The position numbers were made by a program, and so were the translations under genes. This document shows positions 15,756 through 36,440 of a stretch of 64,000 bases of DNA, in pieces. The DNA comes from Escherichia coli. Its GTDB lineage: Bacteria > Pseudomonadota > Gammaproteobacteria > Enterobacterales > Enterobacteriaceae. Position 1 is the stretch's first letter. The number at the start of each line of letters is the position of its first letter. The notes below the pieces were generated by a model. It was not told the origin of the DNA, made no database searches, and saw only the letters and a list, made by a program, of their open reading frames with translations. The stretch lies in assembly GCF_024502345.1 (NCBI RefSeq), contig NZ_JALDNN010000001.1; one strand, given 5' to 3'.

Positions 15756-15788
15756 CGTGGGATAATTTCCGTTTTCCAAGCGGACCCC
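15751..15788. repeat. Tn3-family 38-bp terminal inverted repeat (tnpA-proximal end)
   Basis: Reverse complement reads GGGGTCCGCTTGGAAAACGGAAATTATCCCACGCTAAG; starts with GGGG and ends TAAG, as in Tn3-family IRs. Confidence 0.85.
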
Positions 15789-15858
15789 AGGGAGAGCTGA
15801 GAACATTAAATTTTAATATAAACAAAGAATTACCTTCTTAGCGTACGTTACCGTCCCA

Positions 15859-16092
15859 TTGGCCCTCAAACCCCTCAACACCCTGATGGAACGTTTTTTT
15901 AGAAGTCTGAAAACAGAATGGGTGCCGGATAATGGATACGCTAATTTTAGCGAAGCCAGCACAGCGATAACGAATTACATAACGGGATATTACAGCCAGC
16001 TCAGACCTCATCAATATAACGGTAGTTTGACGCGGAATGAATCAGAACGATTGCTCTGGAAAAACTCTAAAGCCGTGGCCAACTATTGTTGA
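15859..16092 (+). pseudogene. IS3-family orfB C-terminal fragment
   Basis: MERFFRSLKTEWVP...YYSQLRPHQYNGSLTRNESERLLW is the typical C-terminus of an IS3-family OrfB; only about 75-90 codons remain (frame open from about 15817), directly to the right of the Tn3-family IR. Confidence 0.7.
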
Positions 16093-16103
16093 CCACTACA
16101 CAT

Positions 16104-16571
16104 CTATTTTATAGGTAACCCCTTAAAAGATTTAATCTCCTTGATACTGAAACTGGTATTCATCTCCTTTATATTCCCAATTTTTCGTATCCTTATCATT
16201 GATACGTTGTGAAAATCATCCATATCTTTTACTACAAGATGCAGAAGATAGTCGTATCTTCCGGAGATATTATGACAGGCAATTACATTATCAATCTTCA
16301 TTATTTCTGCCTCAAAATATTGCATGCACTCCTCGGAATGAAGATCTAATGTAATATTCATGAATGCATAAAAATTGTATCCAAGGCTTTTCGGTTCGAT
16401 AAAAGCCCGATAGTTTTTTATCACTTCCTGCTCTAAAAACTTTAGCCGTTTCCAGCAGGCTGGAGGGGAAAGAAAAACACGCTTGGCAATCTCAGCGTTG
16501 TTCAGCCTGCCATCTTCCTGCAAGAAATTTAAAATCTGCATATCAACTTTGTCAAGCTTTACCATGTTCAA
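16104..16571 (-). CDS. Lrp/AsnC-family transcriptional regulator (155 aa)
   Basis: N-terminal HTH (DKVDMQILNFLQEDGRLNNAEIAKRV) and C-terminal RAM-like region; divergently arranged to the transporter gene across an AT-rich 200-bp spacer. Confidence 0.85.
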   Translation of the reverse strand: MNMVKLDKVDMQILNFLQEDGRLNNAEIAKRVFLSPPACWKRLKFLEQEVIKNYRAFIEPKSLGYNFYAFMNITLDLHSEECMQYFEAEIMKIDNVIACHNISGRYDYLLHLVVKDMDDFHNVSMIRIRKIGNIKEMNTSFSIKEIKSFKGLPIK

Positions 16572-16773
16572 CCTCCTGTGATAGCAATCATATTCGTAAT
16601 TTTATGAAATAAAATTAACCAAATCAATAAAAACAAGAAATAAGATAAGCCATAAATTGTAAAAATAGTTAATTTTAAAAAGATAATTAATATACTTACC
16701 GGGTAGAATCATTTATGAAGTGCAAACCTCTGTAAATAATTACCATAAAATATCCTCACACAGGAATATACCT

Positions 16774-18081
16774 ATGACCATATTGGAACAGAACATCGAC
16801 AGGGCCTCATTATCGCCAGAAGAGTGGAAAAAACTAACCCGATTTGACAGTACAGATGTAGGATGGATTATCATAAGCATAGGTATGGCTATCGGCGCCG
16901 GGATTGTGTTTTTACCGGTCCAGGTGGGGCTTATTGGATTGTGGGTATTCCTGCTTTCTTCCATCATTGGTTATCCGGCCATGTACCTGTTTCAAAGATT
17001 GTTTATCAATACGCTGGCAGATTCACGAGAGTGTAAAGACTATCCCGGTGTCATCGAGGGCTATCTGGGAAAAAACTGGGGAATGCTCCTCGGTCTGCTC
17101 TACTTTCTCATGCTGGTCATCTGGATATTCGCCTACCCTACGGCGTTGACTAACGATACAGCGTCGTATTTACACACGTTTGGCTTAACTGAGGGTCTTT
17201 TATCAGAGAACCCTTTCTATGGCCTAATTCTTATTACATTTCTTGTGCTTATTGCTTCACGTAGTGAAGAGCTCTTGTTCAGGATTTCCTCTTTCATGGT
17301 GTTATCAAAACTGGTGGTAGTGCTTATCCTGGGGTTGATGATGGTCAGCATGTGGGACCTCTCCAAAAACATCGGTTCATTCCCTTCTTTTAGTATTTTA
17401 ATCAAAAACGCCATTATCACCTTGCCATTTACGTTGACATCAATCCTGTTTATTCAGTCTTTGAGTCCGATGGTAATTTCATATCGTGCAAAAAACAAAT
17501 CTATAGAAGTGGCAAGATATAAAGCGCTAAGAGCAATGAATATCGCTTTTGGTACACTATTCATCGTTGTTTTCTTTTATGCATTATCATTCACTTTCGC
17601 CCTCGGTCACGATGAAGCTGTCAAAGCCTACGAGCAAAATATTTCAGCACTGGCTATTGCCGCACAGTTTATTGAAGGAGATGCAGCAAAGTATGTGACG
17701 CCAGTTGGTGTTGCATTGAATATCTTTGCCCTGATGACTGCCTTCTTCGGCGTTTACCTCGGGTTCAAAGAGGCTGTACAGGGACTGGCGATGAACGCAT
17801 TGACCCGTTTTATACCTTCAGAGAAAATCAATAAAAAAACGCTTAATGTTGGTATTGTCATTTTCACTATTGCCATCGCCTGGGGGGCAATCGTTCTGAA
17901 CCTGCCGGTTCTGCTATTCACCTCAATCTGCAGCCCCATTTTCGGCATTGTTGGTTGCTTAATCCCTGCTTATCTGGTTTACAAGGTACCCTCCCTTCAC
18001 CGATATAAAGGGTTTTCTCTGTATCTGATCATCTTTACTGGCATCCTGCTCTGTATTTCTCCGTTCCTGAAATTCATTTAA
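16774..18081 (+). CDS. HAAAP-family amino acid transporter (TdcC/SdaC/TyrP-like), about 435 aa
   Basis: Multi-span membrane protein with N-terminal W...IGAG..FLP motif; start taken at ATG 16774 (AGGA ribosome-binding site upstream) rather than the GTG at 16720. Confidence 0.82.
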   Translation: MTILEQNIDRASLSPEEWKKLTRFDSTDVGWIIISIGMAIGAGIVFLPVQVGLIGLWVFLLSSIIGYPAMYLFQRLFINTLADSRECKDYPGVIEGYLGKNWGMLLGLLYFLMLVIWIFAYPTALTNDTASYLHTFGLTEGLLSENPFYGLILITFLVLIASRSEELLFRISSFMVLSKLVVVLILGLMMVSMWDLSKNIGSFPSFSILIKNAIITLPFTLTSILFIQSLSPMVISYRAKNKSIEVARYKALRAMNIAFGTLFIVVFFYALSFTFALGHDEAVKAYEQNISALAIAAQFIEGDAAKYVTPVGVALNIFALMTAFFGVYLGFKEAVQGLAMNALTRFIPSEKINKKTLNVGIVIFTIAIAWGAIVLNLPVLLFTSICSPIFGIVGCLIPAYLVYKVPSLHRYKGFSLYLIIFTGILLCISPFLKFI

Positions 18082-18112
18082 ACAAACATATATGTCCAAA
18101 GAAGGTTAAATT

Positions 18113-19318
18113 ATGAAGTACAATTTTGATGAAATTATCAACAGAAAAAATACTGATGCCCTGAACTACGATGGGTGGAGACAATATATATTCAAGGCCG
18201 ACAAGAGTGCCCGCTTTGACTTTAAGGACGATGAATTTGTCAGAATGTGGGTCGCTGATATGGATTTTGCGACACCTCCGGAAATCCTTGCAGCGATTCA
18301 GGAGAGGCTTGATAAAAAAATACTCGGTTACACAAAAGTTTACGATGATGAGTACTATCATATTTTCCACAACTGGTGCCAGAGACGCTATGACTGGAAT
18401 ATAGATACCACAGAGATCGTGCTTTCACCGGGCATTATTCCTGCACTTAACCGTCTGGTACCGTTACTGACACAACAGGATGAAAGTGTGTTGATCAATA
18501 CACCATCCTATACGCCGTTTAAGCAGGCTGGAGACTATAGCTATCGTCGAGTGATCTGTTCTGATTTGCTGAAACAGGACAATGAATACATTATTGACTT
18601 CAACGATATGGAGAAAAAACTAACCGATCCTTCTCTAAATATTAAGCTGTTCATTTTATCCAATCCGCAAAATCCAACCGGGATGGTCTGGTCAGAACAA
18701 GAATTAATGAGAATGGGGCAGTTGTGCCTTAAAAACAATGTCTGGATCATTTCAGACGAAATACATTGTGATTTACTGAGAAATGGGATCAATCATATCC
18801 CGATGGCAAAACTGTTCCCAGACACTGATAAGATCATCACCTGTATGGCACCAAGCAAAACCTTTAATCTTGCCGGAAATCTGATGTCCCATATTTTTAT
18901 TAAAAATGAAAAGGTCAGAAAAGAATGGTTACGTCTTTATGATGAGTTTCTTTCACCACTGAGTCTGGCTGCGACCAAAGCGGCCTGGTCCCGGTGCGAC
19001 GAGTGGCTGGAACAATTAAAACACTATCTTGATGATAACTTCAGACTGGTAGAAAAATTTACCCAGGAACACTTTCCTGACGCAAACTTTAAAATTCCCG
19101 ATGCAACTTATCTGGCATGGATAAATATTGAGAAATACCTGCCACCGCAGGTAGACAGACAACAGCTTTCTCTCTATTTCGCCAACCAGACGGGAATACT
19201 GCTTGAAGGCGGGAACATGTTTGTAAGCAATGGAGAGGGTTACATACGGATTAATCTTGCCTGTCCACGCGCCGTGATACAAGAAGGATTAGAGAGAATA
19301 AGAAAAGCACTGAAATAG
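18113..19318 (+). CDS. PLP-dependent C-S lyase, MalY/PatB family (401 aa)
   Basis: Shares motif pattern with MalY as recalled (DMDFATPP, SNPQNPTG, ISDEIH, SKTFNLAG with the putative PLP lysine); a GAAGG ribosome-binding site precedes the ATG. Confidence 0.82.
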   Translation: MKYNFDEIINRKNTDALNYDGWRQYIFKADKSARFDFKDDEFVRMWVADMDFATPPEILAAIQERLDKKILGYTKVYDDEYYHIFHNWCQRRYDWNIDTTEIVLSPGIIPALNRLVPLLTQQDESVLINTPSYTPFKQAGDYSYRRVICSDLLKQDNEYIIDFNDMEKKLTDPSLNIKLFILSNPQNPTGMVWSEQELMRMGQLCLKNNVWIISDEIHCDLLRNGINHIPMAKLFPDTDKIITCMAPSKTFNLAGNLMSHIFIKNEKVRKEWLRLYDEFLSPLSLAATKAAWSRCDEWLEQLKHYLDDNFRLVEKFTQEHFPDANFKIPDATYLAWINIEKYLPPQVDRQQLSLYFANQTGILLEGGNMFVSNGEGYIRINLACPRAVIQEGLERIRKALK

Positions 19319-19352
19319 TAAATCCCTGAAAATTTCAGCCTGATCGTCCAAA

Positions 19353-19380
19353 AGGTCGCAGTTTAAACAATGCGACCTTT
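19353..19380 (+). terminator. putative intrinsic terminator after the C-S lyase gene
   Basis: Perfect 8-bp stem AGGTCGCA / TGCGACCT with a 10-nt loop, followed by TT and an A/T-rich tail. Confidence 0.45.
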
Positions 19381-19507
19381 ATACCGGATAATTTAGCATG
19401 TTGAACCGATTTTCGGAGACTCTCTATCGCGCTGGACGGCTCTGCATGTACATTGTCGCCTGAAAAATAATATCAGGGATATAAATAGCCTGTTAATACC
19501 TCGTTTC

Positions 19508-20565
19508 GGCTTTGTTGAATAAATCAGATTTCGGGTAAGTCTCCCCCGTAGCGGGTTGTGTTTTCAGGCAATACGCACGCTTTCAGGCATACCTGCTTTC
19601 GTCATTTTGTTCAGCGCTCGTACCAGGGCCATAGCCTCTGCAACCTGACCATCGTAGTCACGCAGTGTCAGTGAACCCCCGAACAGCTGTTTTACCCGGT
19701 ACATCGCCGTTTCCGCTATCGAGCGACGGTTGTAATCTGTTGTCCATTTCCACCGCGCATTACTCCCGGTCATTCGCTGATTAGCCACTGCACGGTTACG
19801 GTCTGCATATTCACCGGGCCAGTAACCCGCACCTTTTCGGGGAGGGATAAGCGCGCTGATTTTCTTACGCCGCAGTTCATCGTGACATAGCCGGGTATCG
19901 TAAGCGCCATCGGCGGCGGCTGACCTGATTTTCCGGTGGGTTTGCCGGATTAACCCGGGGAAGGCCTCTGAGTCCGTAACGTTGTTCAGCGACAGGTCAG
20001 CGCAGATGATTTCATGTGTTTTACTGTCAACGGCGAGATGCAGCTTACGCCAGATACGGCGGCGTTCCTGGCCATGCTTTTTGACTTTCCACTCGCCTTC
20101 ACCGAAGACCTTCAGCCCGGTGGAATCAATTACCAGGTGTGCGATTTCACCCCGGGTGGGCGTTTTGAAACTGACATTAACCGACTTTGCCCGCCTGCTG
20201 ACACAGCTGTAATCCGGGCAGCGTAGCGGAACGTTCATCAGAGAAAAAATGGAATCAATAAAGCCCTGCGCAGCGCGCAGGGTCAGCCTGAATACGCGTT
20301 TAATGACCAAGCACAGTCGTGATGGCAAGGTCAGAATAGCGCTGAGGTCTGCCTCGTGAAGAAGGTGTTGCTGACTCATACCAGGCCTGAATAGCTTCAT
20401 CATCCAGCCAGAAAGTTATGGAGCCACGGTTGATGAGGGCTTTATTGTAGGTGGGCCAGTTGGTGATTTTGAACTTTTGCTTTGCCACGGAACGGTCTGC
20501 GTTGTCGGGAAGATACGTGATCTGATCCTTCAACTCAGCAAAAGTTCGATTTATTCAACAAAGCC
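19508..20565 (-). mobile_element. IS903-like element, copy 1 (1058 bp), flanked by a 9-bp target duplication
   Basis: IRs GGCTTTGTTGAATAAATC at 19508- and inverted ending 20565; direct repeats CCTCGTTTC at 19499-19507 and 20566-20574. Confidence 0.93.
19564..20533 (-). pseudogene. IS903 transposase, frameshifted
   Basis: Split into two ORFs (20300-20533 and 19564-20403); relative to copy 2 there is a 1-nt insertion near 20309-20310 (accaagcac versus accagcac). Confidence 0.9.
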
Positions 20566-20598
20566 CCTCGTTTCCTCTCTTCATGACACCCTGACTCA

Positions 20599-21135
20599 TT
20601 AATATAGTGTCACAGCATTGTGAGGGCACTGGACAACGCATTCGCCACAACCATCACAGCGTTCGTTGTCAGCCGACATCCGTCCAGACTCATTAATAAA
20701 GCAAGCCTGTCGTGGGCATACATCCACGCACTGTTTACACTGTCTGACAGGATTCACACAGGCAGAGTTACAGAACACCGGGCGCAGTCCGGTATCAAAA
20801 CGAGACTGCACGCGTAGCGCGTCACTCGAACATGCTGCGATACACAAACCACAGCCATCACAACTGGCATATTCAATCATCAGTTGCGGGTAACCGTCTT
20901 CATGTCTGGACAGGACTCCCATTGGGCAGACATCAATGCACTGACTACATTGGGTACACTGGGTTATGAACTCCGCATCAGGAACCGCCCCTGGCGGCAA
21001 CGAATGTCCCAGCCGGGTAGACAGTACTTCTGGCGTTGTGTGCTTTGCCGCGCTGACAAACGCACGAAACAGTCCGCGCCGACTGACGTGCCGGTGAGCC
21101 ATCAATTCATGATAATATTTCTCTGATTTGTTCAT
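20599..21135 (-). CDS. NapF-like ferredoxin-type protein (polyferredoxin, 178 aa)
   Basis: Four Cys-cluster motifs (CxxCxxCxxxCP-like) and an N-terminal RRGLF motif; start overlaps the stop of the DmsD-like gene by 4 nt. Confidence 0.72.
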   Translation of the reverse strand: MNKSEKYYHELMAHRHVSRRGLFRAFVSAAKHTTPEVLSTRLGHSLPPGAVPDAEFITQCTQCSQCIDVCPMGVLSRHEDGYPQLMIEYASCDGCGLCIAACSSDALRVQSRFDTGLRPVFCNSACVNPVRQCKQCVDVCPRQACFINESGRMSADNERCDGCGECVVQCPHNAVTLY

Positions 21136-21728
21136 CCGAAATACAGCCGCTTCACCGCAGGTTGCAACGCCCGTTGCTGTTGCAAATCCTGCAAATAGCG
21201 CGTGGTCACGGCGGCAAGGCGAGCATAGAACGGACTCACCCTGTTGCCCTGCAGACGTTCAAGATAGCGATATCCCCACGGTAACAAATAAACCTCTAAC
21301 AGCTGATTAACTGCCGCATCTTTTCCAGCATCAAGTATCGCACTGCAGGCTAACAACATCAGCCCAAACTGATCTTCCGGCTCATTTTGACCCGAATTAA
21401 AAGTCATTCCCTGAGACTGCAGAAACGCCCGGTACTTAGCGGTGGTATTGCCCATTAGCAGGTTATCGCGTTCCAGCCAGACAGATCCCCAGGGTGGCAC
21501 GGGCATCTCGCCCTGCCCTTCAAACAGCACGGAGAATTGCCATGCCAGTTCGTCATTATCGGGAAACGGCCAGTCTGCGCACAGTGAAGCTGTTCCCGCA
21601 GGGTCGCTCCATGGGTACAGCTCCGACAGAGTGGGCAGACAATCGAAAAGTGCTTTCACCTCTGGTCGTTCCGGAGAGTAGTAAAACAGTGCACCGAGGA
21701 TCCTCGGTAATACAATATTGGGGGACAT
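21132..21728 (-). CDS. TorD/DmsD-family redox-enzyme maturation chaperone (198 aa)
   Basis: Motifs ILGALFYY.PE, PWGSVWL and NEPEDQFG parallel E. coli DmsD as recalled, at roughly 35-40 percent identity. Confidence 0.8.
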   Translation of the reverse strand: MSPNIVLPRILGALFYYSPERPEVKALFDCLPTLSELYPWSDPAGTASLCADWPFPDNDELAWQFSVLFEGQGEMPVPPWGSVWLERDNLLMGNTTAKYRAFLQSQGMTFNSGQNEPEDQFGLMLLACSAILDAGKDAAVNQLLEVYLLPWGYRYLERLQGNRVSPFYARLAAVTTRYLQDLQQQRALQPAVKRLYFG

Positions 21729-21771
21729 CCTGAGTTCTCCTGAAAACAGAGCGGCTACAGCCGCTCACAGA

Positions 21772-22557
21772 TTACATCGGCAACGTCCACAGGTTGTAGA
21801 ATGCGATCCTACCCACCAGTTCCGCAGCGATAACCACCAGTGACGTGGTCGCCAGAACGGCCACATTAGTTTTGAGTCGTACCCAGGCCACCACACCGAC
21901 AATGCCGACAGCTAGCAGTACAACCTGAGCAGTGAACCAACTGGATTGAGCCGCAGTTAGCACCCCATCAGCATCCATAAGCGTCAAAATATAGCCTGGA
22001 CGCAGGCAGAAGCTGACCAGAATCGCCAGCACACTCACCAGCAACCCCAGGCGCAGACCAAACAGTCCGGCCAGAATGCCACCTCCGATCATCGGAGTCA
22101 GTACCATCATCACCGTAGTGTAAGATGTCCGCCAGGTGACCACCGTCGGCAACTGATAGATTTGCGGGATGGCGAAGATAAAAACCACCCCCACCGCGGC
22201 CGCCAGCCACACCAGTCCTTTACATAACGAAGCCGCTCCACGATTGAGAAGCAACCCCAGTGCGCCCAGCCCGCCAAGTGTCGCAAACACTGCCGATAAC
22301 ACGATTTCGTTGCTCATCGGTGAATGGCCCACTCGCAGCAACATATTCAATGCTCGTAAAGGCTGGCCTACATGGAAAATGCCCAGCAACACCCCAACGC
22401 CAAACAGACACATCGCGGAGAAAAGACCAACGGCCATACGCTGCCTGTCAATCTGCCCCAGGGTGCCGCCAATCAGCAACAGAATAAACGCGCCAACTGC
22501 GCTCTGAGTAAAGACGGTAAAAAAGACCAGAGGTAACTCATGCATTGCGCACCTCAC
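21772..22557 (-). CDS. DmsC-like membrane anchor subunit
   Basis: Hydrophobic multi-span protein (HELPLVFFTVFTQSAVGAF) resembling DmsC/YnfH; follows the Fe-S subunit gene with overlap. Confidence 0.8.
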   Translation of the reverse strand: MRCAMHELPLVFFTVFTQSAVGAFILLLIGGTLGQIDRQRMAVGLFSAMCLFGVGVLLGIFHVGQPLRALNMLLRVGHSPMSNEIVLSAVFATLGGLGALGLLLNRGAASLCKGLVWLAAAVGVVFIFAIPQIYQLPTVVTWRTSYTTVMMVLTPMIGGGILAGLFGLRLGLLVSVLAILVSFCLRPGYILTLMDADGVLTAAQSSWFTAQVVLLAVGIVGVVAWVRLKTNVAVLATTSLVVIAAELVGRIAFYNLWTLPM

Positions 22558-23164
22558 TCATGTTCATGATGGCCCCTTCCTTGTCTCCCGTCGGGCGGGC
22601 CTTCGGATGGGGTTTAATAATAAGGTTAGGATGAGTAAACGACGCGGCGGGCAGCGGCGCGATTTCATTCTCAGTGCCATACTTCTTCCGTAACTCATCG
22701 ATCGGCCCGAAATCCAGCGCGCGCTGTGGACAAGAGTCCACGCAAATTGGTCGCAGATTTTTCTCCAGTCGATCAAGGCAACCATCGCACTTACGCATCA
22801 CTTTGGCCTGAGCATCAAATTGTGGCGCGCCATACGGGCAGCGCATTTCGCAATAACGGCATCCGACACAAATATTGTCATCGACCAGCACCAGTCCGTC
22901 CTCTTCACGTTTGTGCATCGCTCCGGTAGGACATCCGGAGACACAAACCGGTTCATCACAGTGGTTACAGGCAATAGAGAGGTAGTAGGTAAAAGTGTCG
23001 TTGTGCCAGCTTTCTCCTTCTTTCGCCCAACTTCCGCCACCATATTCATATACCCGACGGAATTTCGGGCCCACGTCCAGATCTTTATTATCCTTGCAAC
23101 TGACCTGGCAGGTTTTGCAGCCTGAGCAACGCGAGGAGTCAACATAAAAGCCATACTGTTTCAT
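22538..23164 (-). CDS. DmsB-like Fe-S subunit (four-cluster ferredoxin, 208 aa)
   Basis: MKQYGFYVDSSRCSGCKTCQVSCKD...CNHCDEP.C...CVGCRYCEMRCPYGAPQ parallels E. coli DmsB/YnfG. Confidence 0.88.
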   Translation of the reverse strand: MKQYGFYVDSSRCSGCKTCQVSCKDNKDLDVGPKFRRVYEYGGGSWAKEGESWHNDTFTYYLSIACNHCDEPVCVSGCPTGAMHKREEDGLVLVDDNICVGCRYCEMRCPYGAPQFDAQAKVMRKCDGCLDRLEKNLRPICVDSCPQRALDFGPIDELRKKYGTENEIAPLPAASFTHPNLIIKPHPKARPTGDKEGAIMNMSEVRNA

Positions 23165-23177
23165 TGCGGATCACTCC

Positions 23178-25361
23178 CTAAGCGCGTTTGATTTCAACCA
23201 GGTTGGTATGTTGCGGGTTCCCTTTCGCCAGCGGCGACGGCAGGTGGCTGGTCAATGTGTTAATACATCCACCCACGTCCACACCGTTGCTGTCCAGTCG
23301 GGTCCACGCGCCTTGCGGCATTGCCACCACGCCCGGCAGGATGCGCTGTGTCACCTTGCAGGGGATCTCCACCACACCGCGATCGTTGAATACATGGACC
23401 ATATCGCCTGATTTCAACTGACGCACGCTGGCGTCTATCGGGTTGATCCAGACTTCATCCGGTACCGCTTCATGCAGCATCAGCACACTGGCATATGTTG
23501 AGTGCGTGTGACCTTTGGTGTGAAAACCGCTCATCTGTAGCGGATACTTTGCTGTCAGACTCTTGTTCAGATGGGACTCTGTCACTATACAAAATTCAGG
23601 AACAGCCGGAATGCGATCTCCTTCCGGTAGTGTCCAGGCTTTAGCCAGTTCCGCCAGAGTGTGCGAGTAAATCTCAATCTTCCCGGAAGGTGTCGTCAGT
23701 GGACTGGCAACCGGATCATGGCGGAAATCAGCAAGGATAATACTGTCCTCATCACGAGTACCTTGCTGATCGATAACCCCCATATTCATTGCAACTTCCC
23801 ATTCAGGCAGATATGATCGCTTCTCTTTAACTTGTCCGTAATGCTTCGCCATCCACTCTGCCTGAGTACGCCCCTCAGTAAAACGCTCTCTTACCCCAAG
23901 ATGCCCCGCAATATCTGCACAGATATCATAGGTACTGCGTACTTCCCACATCGGTGTGATCGTTTTTTGCATTGCAATCATGTAATGGTGAGAACCGGCT
24001 GCATAGGAACTGTCCACCAGATCCTCGGCTTCTAAGTAGCTAGTTTCTGGAAGAAGGATATCGGCAAAGCGGGCACTGGCAGTCATATGATTATCAATAA
24101 CCACGATAGTTTCGCACAGGCTGTCATCTTCAAGTATTTTGCGTGTACGATTGATATTTCCATGTTGATTCAGAAGTGCATTCCCGGCCTGGTTGAAGAA
24201 CAGTTTAATACCGGTTTTCAGTTTATCCGCGCCTTTAACCCCCATAGTGGTGGCTGTCATTTTTTCCGGACTTTGAATCGCATCTGTCCACAGATAGCAG
24301 GGGATTGACACCTTAACGGGATTTTCACCAATCGGCAGAGCAGGAACACCATAAGGTGTTCCGTATGTCCAGTTCCCATTGTTGGTTCCTGGCAATCCAA
24401 AATGACCCGTCAGGGCAGGAAGTATCTGAACCGCTCTGGAAGTCTGTTCACCATTTGCATGACGCTGTGGCCCCCATCCCTGGGCAATGAAACAGGCCCG
24501 AGCTTCGGCCATTTCACGTGCCAACTGGCGAATACGAATAGCCGGGATGCCACAGATATCTGCCGCCCATTCAGGTGTTTTTTCGACGCCGTCATCACCG
24601 TTACCCAGAACATAGTCTTTATAACTGGCATTTGGTTTCGCCGTTTCCGGAAGGGTGCTACGATCATAACCGACACAATAAGTATTGACTCGTTCTTCGT
24701 CGATCAGATTTTCTTTTATCAACGTGTGTGCAATAGCTGCTACCAGTGCAGCATCGGTTGTAGGGCGAATTGGTAACCATTCAGCATGTTCTGTAACAAC
24801 AGAGTCTGTATAGCGCGGATCGATGATAATCACCCGGGCGCCTGATATTTCCAGCGCACGGCGCAGTTCTTCAACTTGCCCACCACCGGACATCCGAGTC
24901 TCAGATAAATTCAGACCAAAAAAAACCACAAGATCAGAATGCGCAATCTGGCTAAAATGACTGGCAAACTGTACTCCTGTAGCACCATACGTGTAAGATG
25001 TGGCGGTAAAGTTTTGAGCGTTTGAGTAATTATTGTAATACTGCAGAAAACCGCCATTCAGGTTCAATAACCTTTTCCATGCGGGTGTTCCTTGGTTATG
25101 ATAATACGCGCCAGATTGATAATTAAAATAGATTGCTTCATTTCCATATTTTTCAGAAACGCGCTTTAATTCAGCGGCAATAAAGGCTGTGGCCTCATCC
25201 CATGAAATACGTTTAAATTTCCCTTCTCCGCGTTTACCAACACGTTTCATCGGATATTTAATCCGGTCAGGGCTGTAAACTCGCCAGCGGCTGGAACGAC
25301 CTCGCAGACAGGGACGGATTTGGTGTTCACCGAATACCGAATCATCCTTAGCATCTTCCGG
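23178..25361 (-). pseudogene. DmsA-like molybdopterin oxidoreductase catalytic subunit, 5'-truncated by IS903 copy 2
   Basis: Frame stays open to the IS903 boundary (PEDAKDDSVFGEHQIRPCLRGRSSRWRVYSPDRIKYPMKRVG) and matches DmsA from about residue 85; the Tat signal and N-terminal Cys-cluster region are missing. Confidence 0.88.
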
Positions 25362-26418
25362 GGCTTTGTTGAATAAATCGAACTTTTGCTGAGTTGAAGG
25401 ATCAGATCACGTATCTTCCCGACAACGCAGACCGTTCCGTGGCAAAGCAAAAGTTCAAAATCACCAACTGGCCCACCTACAATAAAGCCCTCATCAACCG
25501 TGGCTCCATAACTTTCTGGCTGGATGATGAAGCTATTCAGGCCTGGTATGAGTCAGCAACACCTTCTTCACGAGGCAGACCTCAGCGCTATTCTGACCTT
25601 GCCATCACGACTGTGCTGGTCATTAAACGCGTATTCAGGCTGACCCTGCGCGCTGCGCAGGGCTTTATTGATTCCATTTTTTCTCTGATGAACGTTCCGC
25701 TACGCTGCCCGGATTACAGCTGTGTCAGCAGGCGGGCAAAGTCGGTTAATGTCAGTTTCAAAACGCCCACCCGGGGTGAAATCGCACACCTGGTAATTGA
25801 TTCCACCGGGCTGAAGGTCTTCGGTGAAGGCGAGTGGAAAGTCAAAAAGCATGGCCAGGAACGCCGCCGTATCTGGCGTAAGCTGCATCTCGCCGTTGAC
25901 AGTAAAACACATGAAATCATCTGCGCTGACCTGTCGCTGAACAACGTTACGGACTCAGAGGCCTTCCCCGGGTTAATCCGGCAAACCCACCGGAAAATCA
26001 GGTCAGCCGCCGCCGATGGCGCTTACGATACCCGGCTATGTCACGATGAACTGCGGCGTAAGAAAATCAGCGCGCTTATCCCTCCCCGAAAAGGTGCGGG
26101 TTACTGGCCCGGTGAATATGCAGACCGTAACCGTGCAGTGGCTAATCAGCGAATGACCGGGAGTAATGCGCGGTGGAAATGGACAACAGATTACAACCGT
26201 CGCTCGATAGCGGAAACGGCGATGTACCGGGTAAAACAGCTGTTCGGGGGTTCACTGACACTGCGTGACTACGATGGTCAGGTTGCAGAGGCTATGGCCC
26301 TGGTACGAGCGCTGAACAAAATGACGAAAGCAGGTATGCCTGAAAGCGTGCGTATTGCCTGAAAACACAACCCGCTACGGGGGAGACTTACCCGAAATCT
26401 GATTTATTCAACAAAGCC
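25362..26418 (+). mobile_element. IS903-like element, copy 2 (1057 bp), without target duplication
   Basis: IRs GGCTTTGTTGAATAAATCG at 25362- and inverted ending 26418; flanks ATCTTCCGG and CCGGTTGAA are not a direct repeat. Confidence 0.93.
25394..26362 (+). CDS. IS903 transposase (intact; likely 307 aa from the GTG at 25439)
   Basis: Matches IS903/IS102-type transposase as recalled (KQKFKITNWPTYNKALINRGS...MPESVRIA); the ORF track extends it upstream to a TTG. Confidence 0.92.
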   Translation: MKDQITYLPDNADRSVAKQKFKITNWPTYNKALINRGSITFWLDDEAIQAWYESATPSSRGRPQRYSDLAITTVLVIKRVFRLTLRAAQGFIDSIFSLMNVPLRCPDYSCVSRRAKSVNVSFKTPTRGEIAHLVIDSTGLKVFGEGEWKVKKHGQERRRIWRKLHLAVDSKTHEIICADLSLNNVTDSEAFPGLIRQTHRKIRSAAADGAYDTRLCHDELRRKKISALIPPRKGAGYWPGEYADRNRAVANQRMTGSNARWKWTTDYNRRSIAETAMYRVKQLFGGSLTLRDYDGQVAEAMALVRALNKMTKAGMPESVRIA

Positions 26419-28326
26419 CCGGTTGAATTTGGTCGCTTCAATGGCGGGGTAATTGATGCAAAGATCAAACGCTTCAACGCTGATGATAGCAAGGTGAAAT
26501 TGGGTTATCGCACTACGCGTTCGGACTGGTTAACATCGCATATCGATGAGAATAACAAGAGCGCATTTAATCAAGGCTCTTCAGGAAGTACTTATTACTC
26601 CCCAGATTTTAAAAAGAACTTTTATACCTTGTCGTTTAATCAGGAACTCGCTGATAACTTCGGCGTTACCGCCGTTTTATCGCGCCGCCAGTCTGATATC
26701 ACCCGCGCGGATTATGTTTCGAATGACGGCATTGTCGCCGGTCGGGCACAGTATAAAAACGTTATCGATACTGCATTGAGCAAATTTACCTGGTTTGCCA
26801 GCGACCGCTTTACCCACGATTTAACCTTAAAATATACCGGCTCCAGCCGTGATTATAATACCAGCACCTTCCCGCAGTCTGATCGCGAAATGGGTAATAA
26901 ATCCTACGGTCTGGCATGGGATATGGATACGCAGCTCGCATGGGCCAAACTGCGTACCACCGTTGGTTGGGATCATATTAGTGATTATACCCGTCACGAT
27001 CATGACATCTGGTACACCGAACTTTCATGTACATATGGTGATATTACAGGGCGTTGCACCCGTGGCGGATTAGGACACATTTCCCAGGCTGTAGATAATT
27101 ACACCTTCAAAACACGCCTGGACTGGCAAAAATTCGCCGTGGGTAATGTTTCGCATCAACCCTACTTCGGCGCGGAATACATCTATTCTGATGCGTGGAC
27201 TGAACGCCATAACCAGTCTGAATCCTATGTGATTAATGCTGCCGGAAAGAAAACTAACCATACCATTTACCATAAAGGTAAAGGCAGCCAGGGAATTGAC
27301 AACTACACGCTGTATATGGCGGATCGCATTAGCTGGCGTAATGTGTCATTAATGCCCGGCGTGCGGTATGACTATGACAACTATCTGTCAAACCACAATA
27401 TCTCCCCGCGCTTTATGACGGAATGGGATATTTTTGCTGATCAAACCTCAATGATTACAGCAGGTTATAACCGTTACTATGGCGGGAATATTCTTGATAT
27501 GGGATTACGTGATATCCGCAATAGCTGGACGGAATCGGTATCAGGCAATAAAACCCTGACGCGTTATCAGGATTTGAAAACGCCTTATAACGATGAACTG
27601 GCAATGGGATTGCAGCAGAAAATCGGTAAGAACGTTATTGCGCGCGCAAACTATGTTTACCGTGAAGCGCATGATCAAATCAGCAAAAGCAGTCGTACCG
27701 ACAGCGCGACTAAAACCACCATTACTGAATATAACAACGACGGCAAAACAAAAACGCATTCGTTCAACCTCAGTTTTGAACTGGCCGAACCCCTGCATAT
27801 CAGCCAGGTAGATATTAACCCGCAAATTGTCTTTAGCTATATCAAGAGCAAGGGCAACTTGTCGTTAAACAATGGTTATGAGGAGAGCAATACCGGTGAT
27901 AACCAGGTGGTTTATAACGGCAATCTGGTTTCTTACGATAGCGTTCCAGTGGCGGATTTTAATAACCCATTAAAGATCTCCTTAAACATGGATTTCACGC
28001 ATCAACCGAGCGGGTTGGTGTGGGCGAATACGCTGGCCTGGCAAGAAGCGCGTAAAGCTCGCATTATCCTGGGTAAGACGAATGCGCAATACATCAGCGA
28101 ATATTCAGATTACAAGCAGTATGTTGACGAAAAACTGGATAGCAGCCTGACCTGGGACACCCGCTTGTCCTGGACGCCACAATTTCTGAAACAACAAAAC
28201 CTGACGATCAGTGCCGATATTCTCAATGTACTGGATAGCAAAACCGCGGTTGATACAACGAATACCGGTGTGGCGACCTACGCCAGTGGCCGTACTTTCT
28301 GGCTTGATGTCAGCATGAAATTTTAA
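26419..28326 (+). pseudogene. yddB: TonB-dependent outer-membrane receptor YddB, 5'-truncated (C-terminal ~635 codons)
   Basis: Frame is open from the IS903 boundary with no start or signal peptide; C-terminal beta-barrel ending in F; position upstream of pqqL as in K-12. Confidence 0.85.
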
Positions 28327-28370: not shown

Positions 28371-31166
28371 ATGGAGATAATTATGAGAAACCTCTGTTTC
28401 TTACTGACGTTAGTGGCAACTCTGTTGCTCCCCGGGCGGCTGATTGCCGCCGCCTTACTGCAGGATGAAAAGTTAATTACCGGACAACTGGACAATGGCT
28501 TGCGATATATGATTTATCCGCATGCTCAACCAAAGGATCAGGTAAATTTATGGCTGCAAATTCATACCGGTTCATTGCAGGAAGAAGACAATGAGTGCGG
28601 CGTGGCTCATTTTGTAGAACATATGATGTTTAACGGCACAAAAACATGGCCGGGTAATAAAGTCATCGAAACATTTGAGTCAATGGGCCTGCGTTTTGGT
28701 CGCGATGTTAATGCCTATACCAGCTATGACGAAACGGTGTATCAGGTGAGTTTGCCAACTACGCAGAAACAAAATCTGCAACAAGTGATGGCAATCTTCA
28801 GTGAATGGAGTAATGCCGCAACCTTTGAAAAACTCGAAGTAGACGCTGAACGCGGCGTAATTACTGAGGAATGGCGTGCCCATCAGGATGCGAAATGGCG
28901 CACCTCTCAGGCGCGCCGCCCTTTCCTGCTGGCAAATACCCGTAATTTAGACCGTGAACCTATCGGCCTGATGGATACTGTCGCCACGGTCACACCGGCA
29001 CAATTGCGCCAATTTTATCAACGCTGGTATCAACCAAATAATATGACCTTTATCGTGGTTGGCGATATCGACAGTAAAGAAGCGCTGGCGCTGATAAAGG
29101 ATAATTTAAGTAAGCTTCCGGCTAACAAAGCAGCTGAAAATCGCGTCTGGCCGACAAAAGCCGAAAACCACCTGCGCTTTAATATCATTAATGATAAAGA
29201 AAACCGGGTGAACGGCATCGCACTCTATTATCGCCTGCCAATGGTACAAGTGAACGATGAGCAAAGCTTTATCGAACAGGCTGAATGGAGCATGTTAGTT
29301 CAGCTGTTCAATCAACGTCTGCAGGAACGTATACAGTCGGGCGAGTTGAAGACTATTTCTGGCGGCACTGCGCGCAGCGTTAAAATTGCACCCGATTATC
29401 AGTCGCTGTTTTTCCGTGTAAATGCACGAGACGATAATATGCAGGATGCTGCGAATGCATTAATGGCAGAGTTGGCAACCATTGATCAGCATGGTTTTTC
29501 TGCTGAAGAACTCGATGATGTCAAATCTACCCGCCTCACCTGGCTGAAAAATGCGGTTGATCAGCAAGCTGAACGTGATTTACGTATGCTGACCAGTCGC
29601 CTGGCATCAAGCTCATTAAATAATACGCCGTTCTTGTCGCCGGAAGAGACATATCAACTTTCGAAACGTCTGTGGCAGCAAATTACCGTGCAAAGTCTGG
29701 CGGAAAAATGGCAGCAGTTAAGAAAGAACCAGGACGCATTTTGGGAGCAAATGGTAAACAATGAGCTTGCCGCCAAAAAAGCATTGTCTCCTGCGGCTAT
29801 CCTGGCGCTGGAAAAAGAGTACGCCAACAAAAAGCTGGCGGCTTACATCTTCCCAGGCAGAAATTTATCGTTAACAGTAGACGCTGACCCACAGGCGGAA
29901 ATTAGCAGCAAAGAAACGCTGGCTGAGAATCTGACATCATTAACACTTTCCAATGGTGCCAGGGTTATTCTGGCAAAATCCGCGGGTGAAGAGCAAAAGC
30001 TACAAATTATTGCCATATCGAATAAAGGCGATTTAAGTTTCCCTGCGCAGCAAAAATCACTTATCGCGCTGGCAAATAAAGCAGTTAGCGGAAGCGGCGT
30101 TGGCGAACTCTCCTCTTCCAGCCTGAAACGCTGGAGTGCGGAAAACTCGGTAACCATGAGCAGTAAAGTCAGTGGCATGAATACGTTGTTCTCCGTTAGC
30201 GCGCGGACTAATAACCCTGAACCTGGTTTCCAGTTGATTAACCAGCGAATCACCCACAGCACGATTAACGACAATATTTGGGCATCGCTACAAAATGCTC
30301 AAATTCAGGCGTTGAAAACGCTCGACCAGCGTCCAGCGGAGAAATTCGCCCAGCAGATGTATGAGACGCGCTATGCTGATGACCGCACGAAATTACTGCA
30401 AGAAAATCAGATTGCACAGTTTACTGCCGCGGATGCGCTGGCTGCCGATCGCCAGTTGTTTTCATCTCCAGCGGATATCACGTTTGTCATTGTCGGTAAT
30501 GTCGCAGAAGACAAACTCGTGGCGTTAATTACGCGTTACTTAGGATCAATCAAACACTCTGATTCGCCATTAGCCGCAGGTAAACCATTAACTCGCGCGA
30601 CGGACAACGCATCGGTTACTGTAAAAGAACAAAATGAACCTGTGGCACAGGTTTCACAGTGGAAGCGTTATGATTCCCGGACACCTGTTAATCTGGCGAC
30701 GCGTATGGCGCTCGATGCTTTTAACGTCGCACTGGCAAAAGATCTACGCGTTAATATTCGTGAACAGGCATCTGGGGCATACAGCGTTTCTTCTCGCCTC
30801 TCGGTTGATCCTCAGGCCAAAGATATCAGTCATTTGCTGGCTTTTACTTGTCAACCAGAACGACATGATGAACTGTTAACGTTAGCGAATGAAGTGATGG
30901 TTAAGCGTCTGGCTAAAGGGATCAGTGAGCAAGAACTGAATGAATACCAGCAAAACGTTCAGCGCAGCCTCGATATCCAACAGCGTAGCGTTCAACAATT
31001 AGCGAACACCATTGTAAATAGTCTTATTCAATATGACGATCCTGTAGCATGGACTGAGCAGGAGCAATTGTTGAAACAAATGACGGTAGAGAATGTTAAC
31101 ACTGCCGTTAAACAATATCTTTCTCATCCGGTAAATACTTATACCGGAGTAGTATTGCCAAAATAA
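28371..31166 (+). CDS. pqqL: periplasmic zinc metallopeptidase PqqL (M16 family), 931 aa
   Basis: Signal peptide plus the inverted zinc-binding motif HFVEH; length and neighbours match K-12 pqqL. Confidence 0.92.
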   Translation: MEIIMRNLCFLLTLVATLLLPGRLIAAALLQDEKLITGQLDNGLRYMIYPHAQPKDQVNLWLQIHTGSLQEEDNECGVAHFVEHMMFNGTKTWPGNKVIETFESMGLRFGRDVNAYTSYDETVYQVSLPTTQKQNLQQVMAIFSEWSNAATFEKLEVDAERGVITEEWRAHQDAKWRTSQARRPFLLANTRNLDREPIGLMDTVATVTPAQLRQFYQRWYQPNNMTFIVVGDIDSKEALALIKDNLSKLPANKAAENRVWPTKAENHLRFNIINDKENRVNGIALYYRLPMVQVNDEQSFIEQAEWSMLVQLFNQRLQERIQSGELKTISGGTARSVKIAPDYQSLFFRVNARDDNMQDAANALMAELATIDQHGFSAEELDDVKSTRLTWLKNAVDQQAERDLRMLTSRLASSSLNNTPFLSPEETYQLSKRLWQQITVQSLAEKWQQLRKNQDAFWEQMVNNELAAKKALSPAAILALEKEYANKKLAAYIFPGRNLSLTVDADPQAEISSKETLAENLTSLTLSNGARVILAKSAGEEQKLQIIAISNKGDLSFPAQQKSLIALANKAVSGSGVGELSSSSLKRWSAENSVTMSSKVSGMNTLFSVSARTNNPEPGFQLINQRITHSTINDNIWASLQNAQIQALKTLDQRPAEKFAQQMYETRYADDRTKLLQENQIAQFTAADALAADRQLFSSPADITFVIVGNVAEDKLVALITRYLGSIKHSDSPLAAGKPLTRATDNASVTVKEQNEPVAQVSQWKRYDSRTPVNLATRMALDAFNVALAKDLRVNIREQASGAYSVSSRLSVDPQAKDISHLLAFTCQPERHDELLTLANEVMVKRLAKGISEQELNEYQQNVQRSLDIQQRSVQQLANTIVNSLIQYDDPVAWTEQEQLLKQMTVENVNTAVKQYLSHPVNTYTGVVLPK

Positions 31167-36069: not shown

Positions 36070-36440
36070 ACTCCCATTCTTACTTTGTAACAAGCCGGTG
36101 CTTTACCCACTGGCTTGTTACCCTCTTGAACTATCCCACCAGCAATCATGCTTACTAAAGTCAAATTAACCACGCAATTAACGACACTTAGTTAAATAGC
36201 CATAATCCCCCTAATAAAAATGTATGAATATGAAAAACCATACGATATTCGCAGTCACCGAAAAATAATTACGATGGGCTATACTCTTCTGAAGAACAGT
36301 AGCGTAGATTGAAACTGTCCTAAGTCGCTTATTTCTTTTCAGTATATCTTCATATTTCAGGAGAATATGGTGCAGTTAGTCGATCTCGCACGTTGCGTTT
36401 TGATTCCGTCTGATTTCCCAGCCTTATAAAGGTGTGAATT

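Follow-up and report, generated by a model that had tools for sequence, protein, structure and literature searches.

At the border between a large accessory island and the core chromosome of Escherichia coli, two copies of one insertion sequence lie inverted to each other around a 4.8-kb segment, with their IRR ends outermost, raising the question of whether the pair behaved as a unit or whether each copy records an event of its own. We examined this arrangement in a 64,000-nt stretch of chromosomal DNA (the window), for which an earlier interpretation made from the letters alone (the sequence-only reading) had proposed separate histories. We conclude that copy 1 is a simple insertion and that copy 2 is, very probably, a scar left where an IS903-associated deletion cut into the right edge of the island, which as a whole lies near hipA.

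The 18-bp terminal repeat GGCTTTGTTGAATAAATC occurs at exactly four places in the window (19508 and 25362, and in reverse orientation 20565 and 26418), where none is expected by chance, and the four pair to delimit elements of 1058 bp (copy 1) and 1057 bp (copy 2). Both are IS903B, a 1057-bp insertion sequence of the IS5 family. Alignment of 19508-20565 with the reverse complement of 25362-26418 confirmed a single indel as their sole difference: one extra A in copy 1, which has AA at 20309-20310 in place of a single A. The transposase of copy 2 is identical at 304 of 307 residues (99%) to the RefSeq IS903B transposase WP_032413405.1, and scores 357.6 bits with NCBIfam NF033579 (cutoff 140). 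IS903B normally generates a 9-bp target duplication; one is present at copy 1 and absent at copy 2. The features of the region are located in Table 1.

Table 1. Features flanking and including the two IS903B copies (positions in the 64,000-nt window)
Feature	Position	Strand	Remarks
Lrp/AsnC regulator	16104-16571	-	C-S lyase module (16104..19318); NCBIfam and RefSeq of LR536431
Serine/threonine-type transporter	16720-18081	+	C-S lyase module; NCBIfam and RefSeq of LR536431
PatB/MalY-family C-S lyase	18113-19318	+	C-S lyase module; NCBIfam and RefSeq of LR536431
Left 9-bp target duplication of copy 1, CCTCGTTTC	19499..19507	.	Single copy at empty sites in LR536431 and L016
IS903B copy 1	19508..20565	-	1058 bp, perfect 18-bp ends; transposase pseudogene, frame from 20488 down to 19564
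Right 9-bp target duplication of copy 1, CCTCGTTTC	20566..20574	.	
NapF-like 4Fe-4S protein	20599-21135	-	Reductase operon, distal genes (20599..23164); NCBIfam, RefSeq names
DmsD-type chaperone	21132-21728	-	Reductase operon; NCBIfam, RefSeq names
DmsC-type anchor	21772-22557	-	Reductase operon; NCBIfam, RefSeq names
DmsB-type Fe-S subunit	22538-23164	-	Reductase operon; NCBIfam, RefSeq names
5'-truncated DMSO/selenate-family reductase A gene	23178..25361	-	727 of 813 codons; first 86 codons and promoter missing
IS903B copy 2	25362..26418	+	1057 bp; intact 307-aa transposase (25439-26362); no target duplication
5'-truncated yddB (TonB-dependent receptor)	26419..28326	+	Codons 156-790; N-terminal 155 residues missing
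pqqL	28383..31166	+	First intact core gene right of the junction

The sequence CCTCGTTTC borders copy 1 on both sides, matching at nine of nine positions (chance about 4e-6), and precise empty sites with one CCTCGTTTC exist in E. coli LR536431 and in a contig, L016, from ENA assembly ERZ27278125; because of these empty sites we regard copy 1 as a proven simple insertion. The sequence-only reading had inserted it into contiguous DNA on the strength of its perfect repeat, making the C-S lyase module and the reductase operon former neighbours, and both statements stand: the two adjoin in LR536431 and L016, and the C-S lyase gene lies directly beside the operon in ten further loci. The pseudogene call also holds, as the extra A shifts the transposase frame after codon 60 and the frame stops two codons past residue 60. 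The same base was found at none of 3206 IS903-like places in 5426 E. coli genomes, and an assembly error could account for this 1-nt frameshift. Copy 1 is best explained as a recent simple transposition. It landed between the C-S lyase gene and the final gene of the reductase operon, in the spacer where these two convergent genes meet, and its source was most likely copy 2 or a sibling copy; the private +1 frameshift would have been gained later, if it is not an assembly error.

Around copy 2, comparison of the flanks (ATCTTCCGG and CCGGTTGAA) revealed no 9-bp repeat, and only CCGG is common to both. The left flank is a reductase A gene deprived of 258 nt relative to LR536431 (in which the intact gene occupies 18342-20783 of locus L001, with the breakpoint at L001 20525), and the right flank is yddB deprived of 465 nt relative to ATCC 8739 (the intact gene being mapped on L003). 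Both breakpoints fall on codon boundaries. An intact transposase, a missing duplication and two genes truncated in frame had all been described at this site and are all present; the frame itself is without functional meaning. The further description of the site as a fusion of dmsA' to yddB' survives in part: it is a rearrangement junction and not a gene fusion, because the flanking genes diverge from the IS, each without its own 5' end, and the first of them is not dmsA. Its product passes TIGR02166, the dmsA_ynfE subfamily (1051.7 bits, cutoff 777.7), and falls far below the cutoff of the DmsA-specific NF011566 (823.6 bits, cutoff 1600), identifying it as a dmsA paralogue of the DMSO/selenate family. 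Its TIGR02166 match starts at profile position 74 of 794, and full-length copies have an N-terminal Molybdop_Fe4S4 domain. Assignments of the distal genes of the operon are also supported by Pfam families on L014 and L016; the C-S lyase module matches TIGR04350, TIGR00814 and NF008370, and the corresponding stretch of LR536431 is 99.97% identical. Because it is without its promoter and 5' end, the accessory reductase operon is predicted to be dead.

Collinearity with core E. coli begins at 26419 and extends to the end of the window (64000). The island accordingly has its right edge at 26418/26419, in agreement with the earlier view of copy 2 as the right-hand limit of the accessory block. Comparison with ATCC 8739 fixed the deletion endpoint at yddB nt 465/466: starting at yddB nt 466, the yddB-pqqL-gadBC stretch retains its synteny and is 98.87% identical over 9383 nt. 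The yddB 5' end, yddA and ydeM-ydeP occur nowhere in the 64,000-nt window, within which the proposed loss of the 5' end and of what lay upstream is thereby upheld, and yddB is predicted to be dead in the source strain. No record was found for the 931-aa pqqL ORF or for truncated yddB' products of 610 and 608 aa. The right junction, IRR|yddB', recurs without a single base difference in GCA_050022275.1, an independent NCBI assembly, which was reached via an exact pqqL protein look-up and is 99.993% identical over 14.8 kb.

In related genomes the island has the same neighbourhood and orientation but stops on the right at ydeT' (CP062853) or at an ISKpn26|gadC' junction (LR536431); its hipA-side (left) end is visible in CP170298, and in the window that end is scrambled relative to LR536431. 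The two flanks of copy 2 map far apart in relatives with their relative orientation unchanged: LR536431 has the reductase breakpoint on the same strand as the core genes that come after yddB, from gadC' onwards. In that genome yddB is itself deleted; the yddB breakpoint was mapped on ATCC 8739, with which the yddB'-gadC stretch is collinear. Copy 2 therefore connects separate flanks of the same orientation, and the DNA between them is absent from the window, as in an IS-associated deletion. All five simple IS903/IS903B insertions examined elsewhere as controls have perfect 9-bp duplications, and in the one comparison case, PCP06021, an IS903-like element spanning a proven 5114-bp ydeN'-yddB' deletion has none. 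The displaced flanks of unchanged orientation, the missing duplication and these controls lend support to the earlier attribution of copy 2 to an IS-mediated deletion or to recombination between IS copies. A yddB' junction in 730V1, considered as a remnant of the window's IS junction, proved to be unrelated: it is a deletion that contains no IS and shows 4-5 nt of microhomology.

The breakpoints have some sequence in common. The palindrome CCGG brackets copy 2, lengthening its inverted repeats to 22 bp, and the native reductase and yddB sequences share CCGGTT[C/G]AATT at 10 of 11 positions, a resemblance also seen in about 0.2% of random pairs. Microhomology through this motif was rejected as the direct cause, every version of it predicting five extra IS-adjacent bases that are not observed. 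Target preference was likewise set aside as an explanation: the published IS903 target motif, WTTYA-N9-TRAAW (PMC2577343), finds no good match, as judged by eye, at any of the window's three sites.

A deletion of this kind would have removed 258 nt from the start of the reductase A gene, all of the island DNA that lies right of reductase A in relatives (about 16 kb in LR536431) and the core chromosome up to yddB nt 465, joining the island directly to yddB'-pqqL. Its most likely route would be intramolecular replicative transposition of IS903 in the deletion mode, that is, an adjacent deletion, which would keep one old junction and make one new one and therefore leave no direct repeat. The literature explains missing duplications by adjacent deletion or by IS-IS recombination, and describes the former as common for IS903 (PMC11708052). 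We observe directly the anatomy, the empty site, both breakpoints, the loss with orientation retained and the missing duplication; which junction is the older, and whether one IS copy took part or two, we infer.

The contig L016 bears on this inference. It is 100% identical over the reductase segment, is without copy 1, and has an IS903 end at exactly the reductase breakpoint of the window, but that end is IRR, not IRL, and the element thus has the opposite orientation. L016 represents a different sublineage, having at the left edge of the block an IS5075-type element that is missing from the window. The orientation of its IS903 is not what a single adjacent deletion would give; to account for it, the same 9-bp target must have been hit twice, the element must have flipped in place, or two IS copies must have been involved. 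It is conceivable, if rather doubtful, that IS903 flips in place or is deleted via its short terminal repeats, or else that the breakpoint is a strong IS903B target reused in both orientations. In the L016 genome, IRL|ATCTTCCGGTTCAATT would denote a simple insertion in the reductase gene, pointing to independent reuse of the target or a two-IS history, and IRL|CCGGTTGAATTT would denote an in-place flip of an element of the window type.

Among other explanations, one of some weight supposes two IS903 insertions, in the reductase A gene and in yddB, each with its 9-bp duplication, that recombined with deletion of the DNA between them, either by full-length homologous recombination of direct copies or, if they were inverted as L016 would have it, through their 18-bp terminal repeats. 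The product would be the same as that of an adjacent deletion, and IS-IS recombination is one of the standard causes of missing duplications (PMC11708052). Simple IS903/IS903B insertions in yddB recur in other strains (three within ~440 nt of the 5' end, a fourth close to the 3' end), oriented like copy 2, and L016 supplies an IS903 at the reductase site. Neither precursor junction with a duplication was found, however, in any collection searched: IS903 with a 9-bp duplication was present at neither breakpoint in 5426 complete E. coli genomes, nor was such a precursor found in JGI metagenome contigs or GTDB species representatives, and 72,556 plasmids, searched for the reductase-side junction alone, yielded no precursor of it. 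A reductase-side junction identical to that of the window was likewise absent from the complete E. coli genomes, the plasmids, the JGI metagenome contigs and the GTDB representatives. The IS orientation in L016 is, moreover, the wrong one for ordinary homologous deletion; the 18-bp route accommodates it with no need for repeated target use, but 18 bp of homology would only very rarely mediate a deletion of more than 30 kb. The present data do not discriminate between adjacent deletion and IS-IS recombination, and we consider the two-insertion origin possible, if on the unlikely side.

It is very unlikely that copy 2 lost its duplication by inversion with a third, inverted IS903 outside the window, leaving the yddB 5' end to survive elsewhere. 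Inversion between inverted IS copies does also give elements without duplications, the left end of the island is scrambled, and, the evidence from the source strain being that of the window, a displaced yddB 5' end in the rest of the genome is conceivable; GTGCCGGTTGAA adjoining an IS903 end elsewhere in the source genome would favour such an event. But an inversion would flip the reductase block with respect to yddB'-pqqL, the blocks of LR536431 and CP062853 are oriented as in the window, and no swapped or reverse-complement duplications connect the flanks of the two copies within it. Inversion between the window's own two copies was rejected, since copy 1 keeps its direct duplication and there are no reverse-complement flank pairs. 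That one or another detail is an artefact, with the source assembly in error about how copy 2 is oriented or placed, or about the extra A of copy 1, we hold to be highly improbable. Single-base indels are typical long-read errors, the extra A is in no other IS903 among the 3206 places, and in L016 it is the other IS end that abuts the reductase breakpoint; the independent assembly nevertheless reproduces the IRR|yddB' junction exactly, and L016, with its IS5075-type element, represents another sublineage. Barely credible is a movement of the 6.9-kb unit 19508-26418 into yddB as a Tn903-like composite transposon, or an arrival of the island via an IS903-mediated cointegrate. The layout is indeed that of Tn903, with inverted IS903 copies, IRR ends outermost and one intact transposase, but the outer flanks differ (CCTCGTTTC versus CCGGTTGAA) and share no 9-bp duplication. 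Copy 1 carries a duplication of its own and corresponds to an exact empty site, the cargo consists of an operon cut short, the lost part of which is found in relatives immediately past the position of the IS, and no record covers at least 80% of the unit.

With copy 1 read as a simple insertion and copy 2 as a deletion scar, the two-copy arrangement is ordinary, textbook IS behaviour and offers nothing new for IS903 biology. Its main value is for annotation: the reductase operon and yddB would be dead remnants in the source strain, and the right edge of the island is fixed, an edge that IS-family elements have eroded to different depths (ydeT', yddB', gadC') across E. coli lineages.

Among known systems, both copies resemble IS903/IS903B (IS5 family, IS903 group; the IS of Tn903) in their 1057-bp unit, perfect 18-bp repeats and single 307-aa DDE transposase, 99% identical to the annotated IS903B protein, and in the 9-bp duplication at copy 1; they differ in the private +1 frameshift of copy 1 and in the missing duplication of copy 2, the latter because a rearrangement created at least one of its two junctions. 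Two inverted IS903 copies around a 4.8-kb segment recall Tn903, but the outer ends have no duplication in common, the insertion of copy 1 was a separate event, and nothing indicates past movement of the unit as a whole. The IS-mediated adjacent deletions of IS903, IS1 and IS150 (reviewed in PMC11708052) offer a further likeness, as an intact IS joins sequences distant in relatives, with orientation preserved and no target duplication in the window; the differences are the precursor, not found in the collections searched, and the opposite IS at the same breakpoint in L016. The ydeN'-IS903-like-yddB' junction of E. coli PCP06021 (NZ_CM129877.1) is an independent event that differs in its IS isoform (93% identity across the junction query), its left partner ydeN and its 5114-bp deletion, but there too the link between a truncated upstream gene and yddB' is an IS903-type element lacking a duplication, with a yddB endpoint only 12 nt upstream of that in the window.

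The IS903 terminal repeat, GGCTTTGTTGAATAAATC, matches the window at four places (chance expectation, none), which pair into elements of 1058 bp (copy 1) and 1057 bp (copy 2). Aligned with the reverse complement of copy 2, copy 1 differs solely by an extra A, confirming the single indel anticipated by the sequence-only reading. Copy 2 encodes a 307-aa transposase that scores well over the cutoff of the IS5-family model NF033579 and is identical to a RefSeq IS903B transposase at 304 of 307 positions; the copy 1 frame meets a stop two codons past residue 60. Because 3206 IS903-like places identified across 5426 complete E. coli genomes all lack the extra A, it must be a mutation private to copy 1 or else an assembly error. 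The frameshift behind the earlier call of a copy 1 pseudogene is present, and a sequencing origin for it is possible.

Copy 1 is a simple insertion, flanked on both sides by CCTCGTTTC. The same block in E. coli LR536431 (L001; 99.9-99.97% identity) and contig L016 (ENA ERZ27278125) each carry a single CCTCGTTTC and no IS at this site, and the C-S lyase gene immediately adjoins the last gene of the reductase operon in 10 further loci; the proposal that these two modules were once neighbours was correct. As the insertion point lies between the ends of two convergent genes, copy 1 disrupts no gene.

No 9-bp repeat surrounds copy 2, whose flanks differ (ATCTTCCGG on the left, CCGGTTGAA on the right); an intact transposase without target duplication is borne out, as is the truncation of both flanking genes (Table). 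Comparison with ATCC 8739 (L003) locates the endpoint in yddB; the sequence then runs collinear with that genome (98.9% identity) and, rightward to the window end, with the core E. coli chromosome. The left-hand reductase gene reaches the dmsA_ynfE subfamily cutoff, falls far short of the cutoffs specific to DmsA and YnfE, and matches the profile only from position 74; in full-length copies the missing region contains a Molybdop_Fe4S4 domain. These matches identify it as an accessory family paralogue that has lost its promoter and N-terminal region, rather than dmsA as first named. Since both truncated genes point away from the IS, the site is a junction and not the gene fusion that had been described. 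The independent NCBI assembly GCA_050022275.1, which matches at 99.993% identity over 14.8 kb, has exactly the same joint between IRR (the transposase-stop end) and CCGGTTGAA.

Features and coordinates (window unless stated)
Feature	Location	Description
Copy 1 terminal-repeat matches	19508+, 20565-	
Copy 2 terminal-repeat matches	25362+, 26418-	
CCTCGTTTC duplication	19499-19507, 20566-20574	either side of copy 1
Extra A	20309-20310	AA in copy 1
CCGG	25358-25361, 26419-26422	either side of copy 2
DMSO/selenate-family reductase A-subunit gene	left of copy 2, minus strand	cut after codon 86; first 86 codons absent
Intact reductase A gene	L001 18342-20783	breakpoint L001 20525
yddB'	right of copy 2	from nt 466 (codon 156, first retained) onward
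Shared breakpoint motif	L001 20514-20537, L003 8989-9012	native reductase and yddB
Deletion ends in yddB	26419, L004 6118, L009 7010-7015	window, PCP06021, 730V1
IS903 end compared	L016 1-143	vs window 25362-25480 and 26280-26422
Island right edge, CP062853		ydeT'
Island right edge, LR536431		ISKpn26-gadC' junction
Island right edge, window		IS903-yddB'
~16 kb LR536431 segment	right of reductase breakpoint	TetR, gorA, IS200C, OsmC, IS1B, RelE/ParE, ISKpn26
ISKpn26	75-1270	flanks TTAG / TTAA
TTAAACAGC	36192-36200	empty site

The reductase A gene has been inactivated independently in other samples: it is internally disrupted into two gene calls in L014 and L015, lies at an IS1 junction in L018, and is joined to type VI secretion genes in L017. 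This recurrence suggests that the operon is often dispensable.

The DNA left of copy 2 is part of a large accessory island, whose start in CP170298 is marked by a truncated hipA and integrase genes. The yddB 5' end, yddA, ydeM, ydeN, ydeO and ydeP occur nowhere within the window, upholding within it the proposed loss of DNA at copy 2, and ~16 kb of island DNA present in LR536431 is missing from this position. Island blocks matching the window have the same orientation to the core flank in LR536431, CP062853 and the window, an arrangement that fits a deletion and argues against an inversion at copy 2. At five loci in other genomes (L002, L005, L010, L011, L012), simple insertions of IS903/IS903B all retain perfect 9-bp duplications. 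Orientation, missing DNA and these duplication controls support the reading of copy 2 as the product of an IS-mediated adjacent deletion or of recombination between IS903 copies.

Missing target duplications have been ascribed to either process, and adjacent deletions are called common for IS903 (PMC11708052). Both leave the same end structure, exactly that found at copy 2. We favour adjacent deletion, by which the junction would have arisen through intramolecular transposition, because one IS suffices. Recombination of two IS903 copies across the deleted DNA is nonetheless quite plausible, since yddB is a recurrent target: other strains have three simple insertions within the first ~440 nt of the gene and one close to the 3' end, all oriented as copy 2. 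A deletion precursor was found in none of the collections searched.

The native breakpoints share CCGGTT[C/G]AATT (10/11), a likeness equalled by ~0.2% of random site pairs; no model tried yields a causal role for it. Three independent deletions end within a 12-nt stretch inside yddB (nt 453-465), that of 730V1 being IS-free, with 4-5 nt microhomology and a type I restriction-modification region as partner. Taken with the three simple insertions in the first ~440 nt, these ends may mark the yddB 5' region as a hot spot, although the search was biased toward the nt 453-465 position.

Contig L016 is 100% identical to the window over 20566-25379 and 99.97% over 15767-19507, and has an IS903 end at the identical reductase breakpoint, but this end is IRR where the window has IRL. 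An IS5075-type element at the left block edge in L016 and LR536431 is absent from the window, where at ~15767 a Tn3-family transposon end adjoins the C-S lyase module; the IS5075-type element marks L016 as a sister sublineage. Ordinary IS-IS recombination never switches the IS end touching a fixed flank. The opposite ends could instead reflect two independent strikes on the same 9-bp target, or an IS flipped in place via its terminal repeats, which CCGG on either side of window copy 2 lengthens to 22 bp. Another option is that an ancestor had an IS in each gene, L016-type in the reductase gene and oppositely oriented in yddB, an arrangement making the 18-bp termini direct repeats between which deletion could occur; assembly error is a further one.

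Elsewhere, the 4-bp flanks of an ISKpn26 copy differ, and its left flank is the sequence adjoining the LR536431 ISKpn26-gadC' junction, which makes it another rearrangement junction. The island left end is scrambled relative to LR536431, and TTAAACAGC is the empty site for an IS903-like element that in LR536431 separates digH from dosC and has a perfect 9-bp duplication.

The analysis confirms the observation and supports the deletion/rearrangement reading, with minor corrections to gene name, "fusion" and the possible origin of the frameshift. In PCP06021 an IS903-like element spans a demonstrated 5114-bp ydeN'-yddB' deletion and, like copy 2, lacks a duplication. The two copies together present standard IS903 behaviour and standard island-edge erosion.
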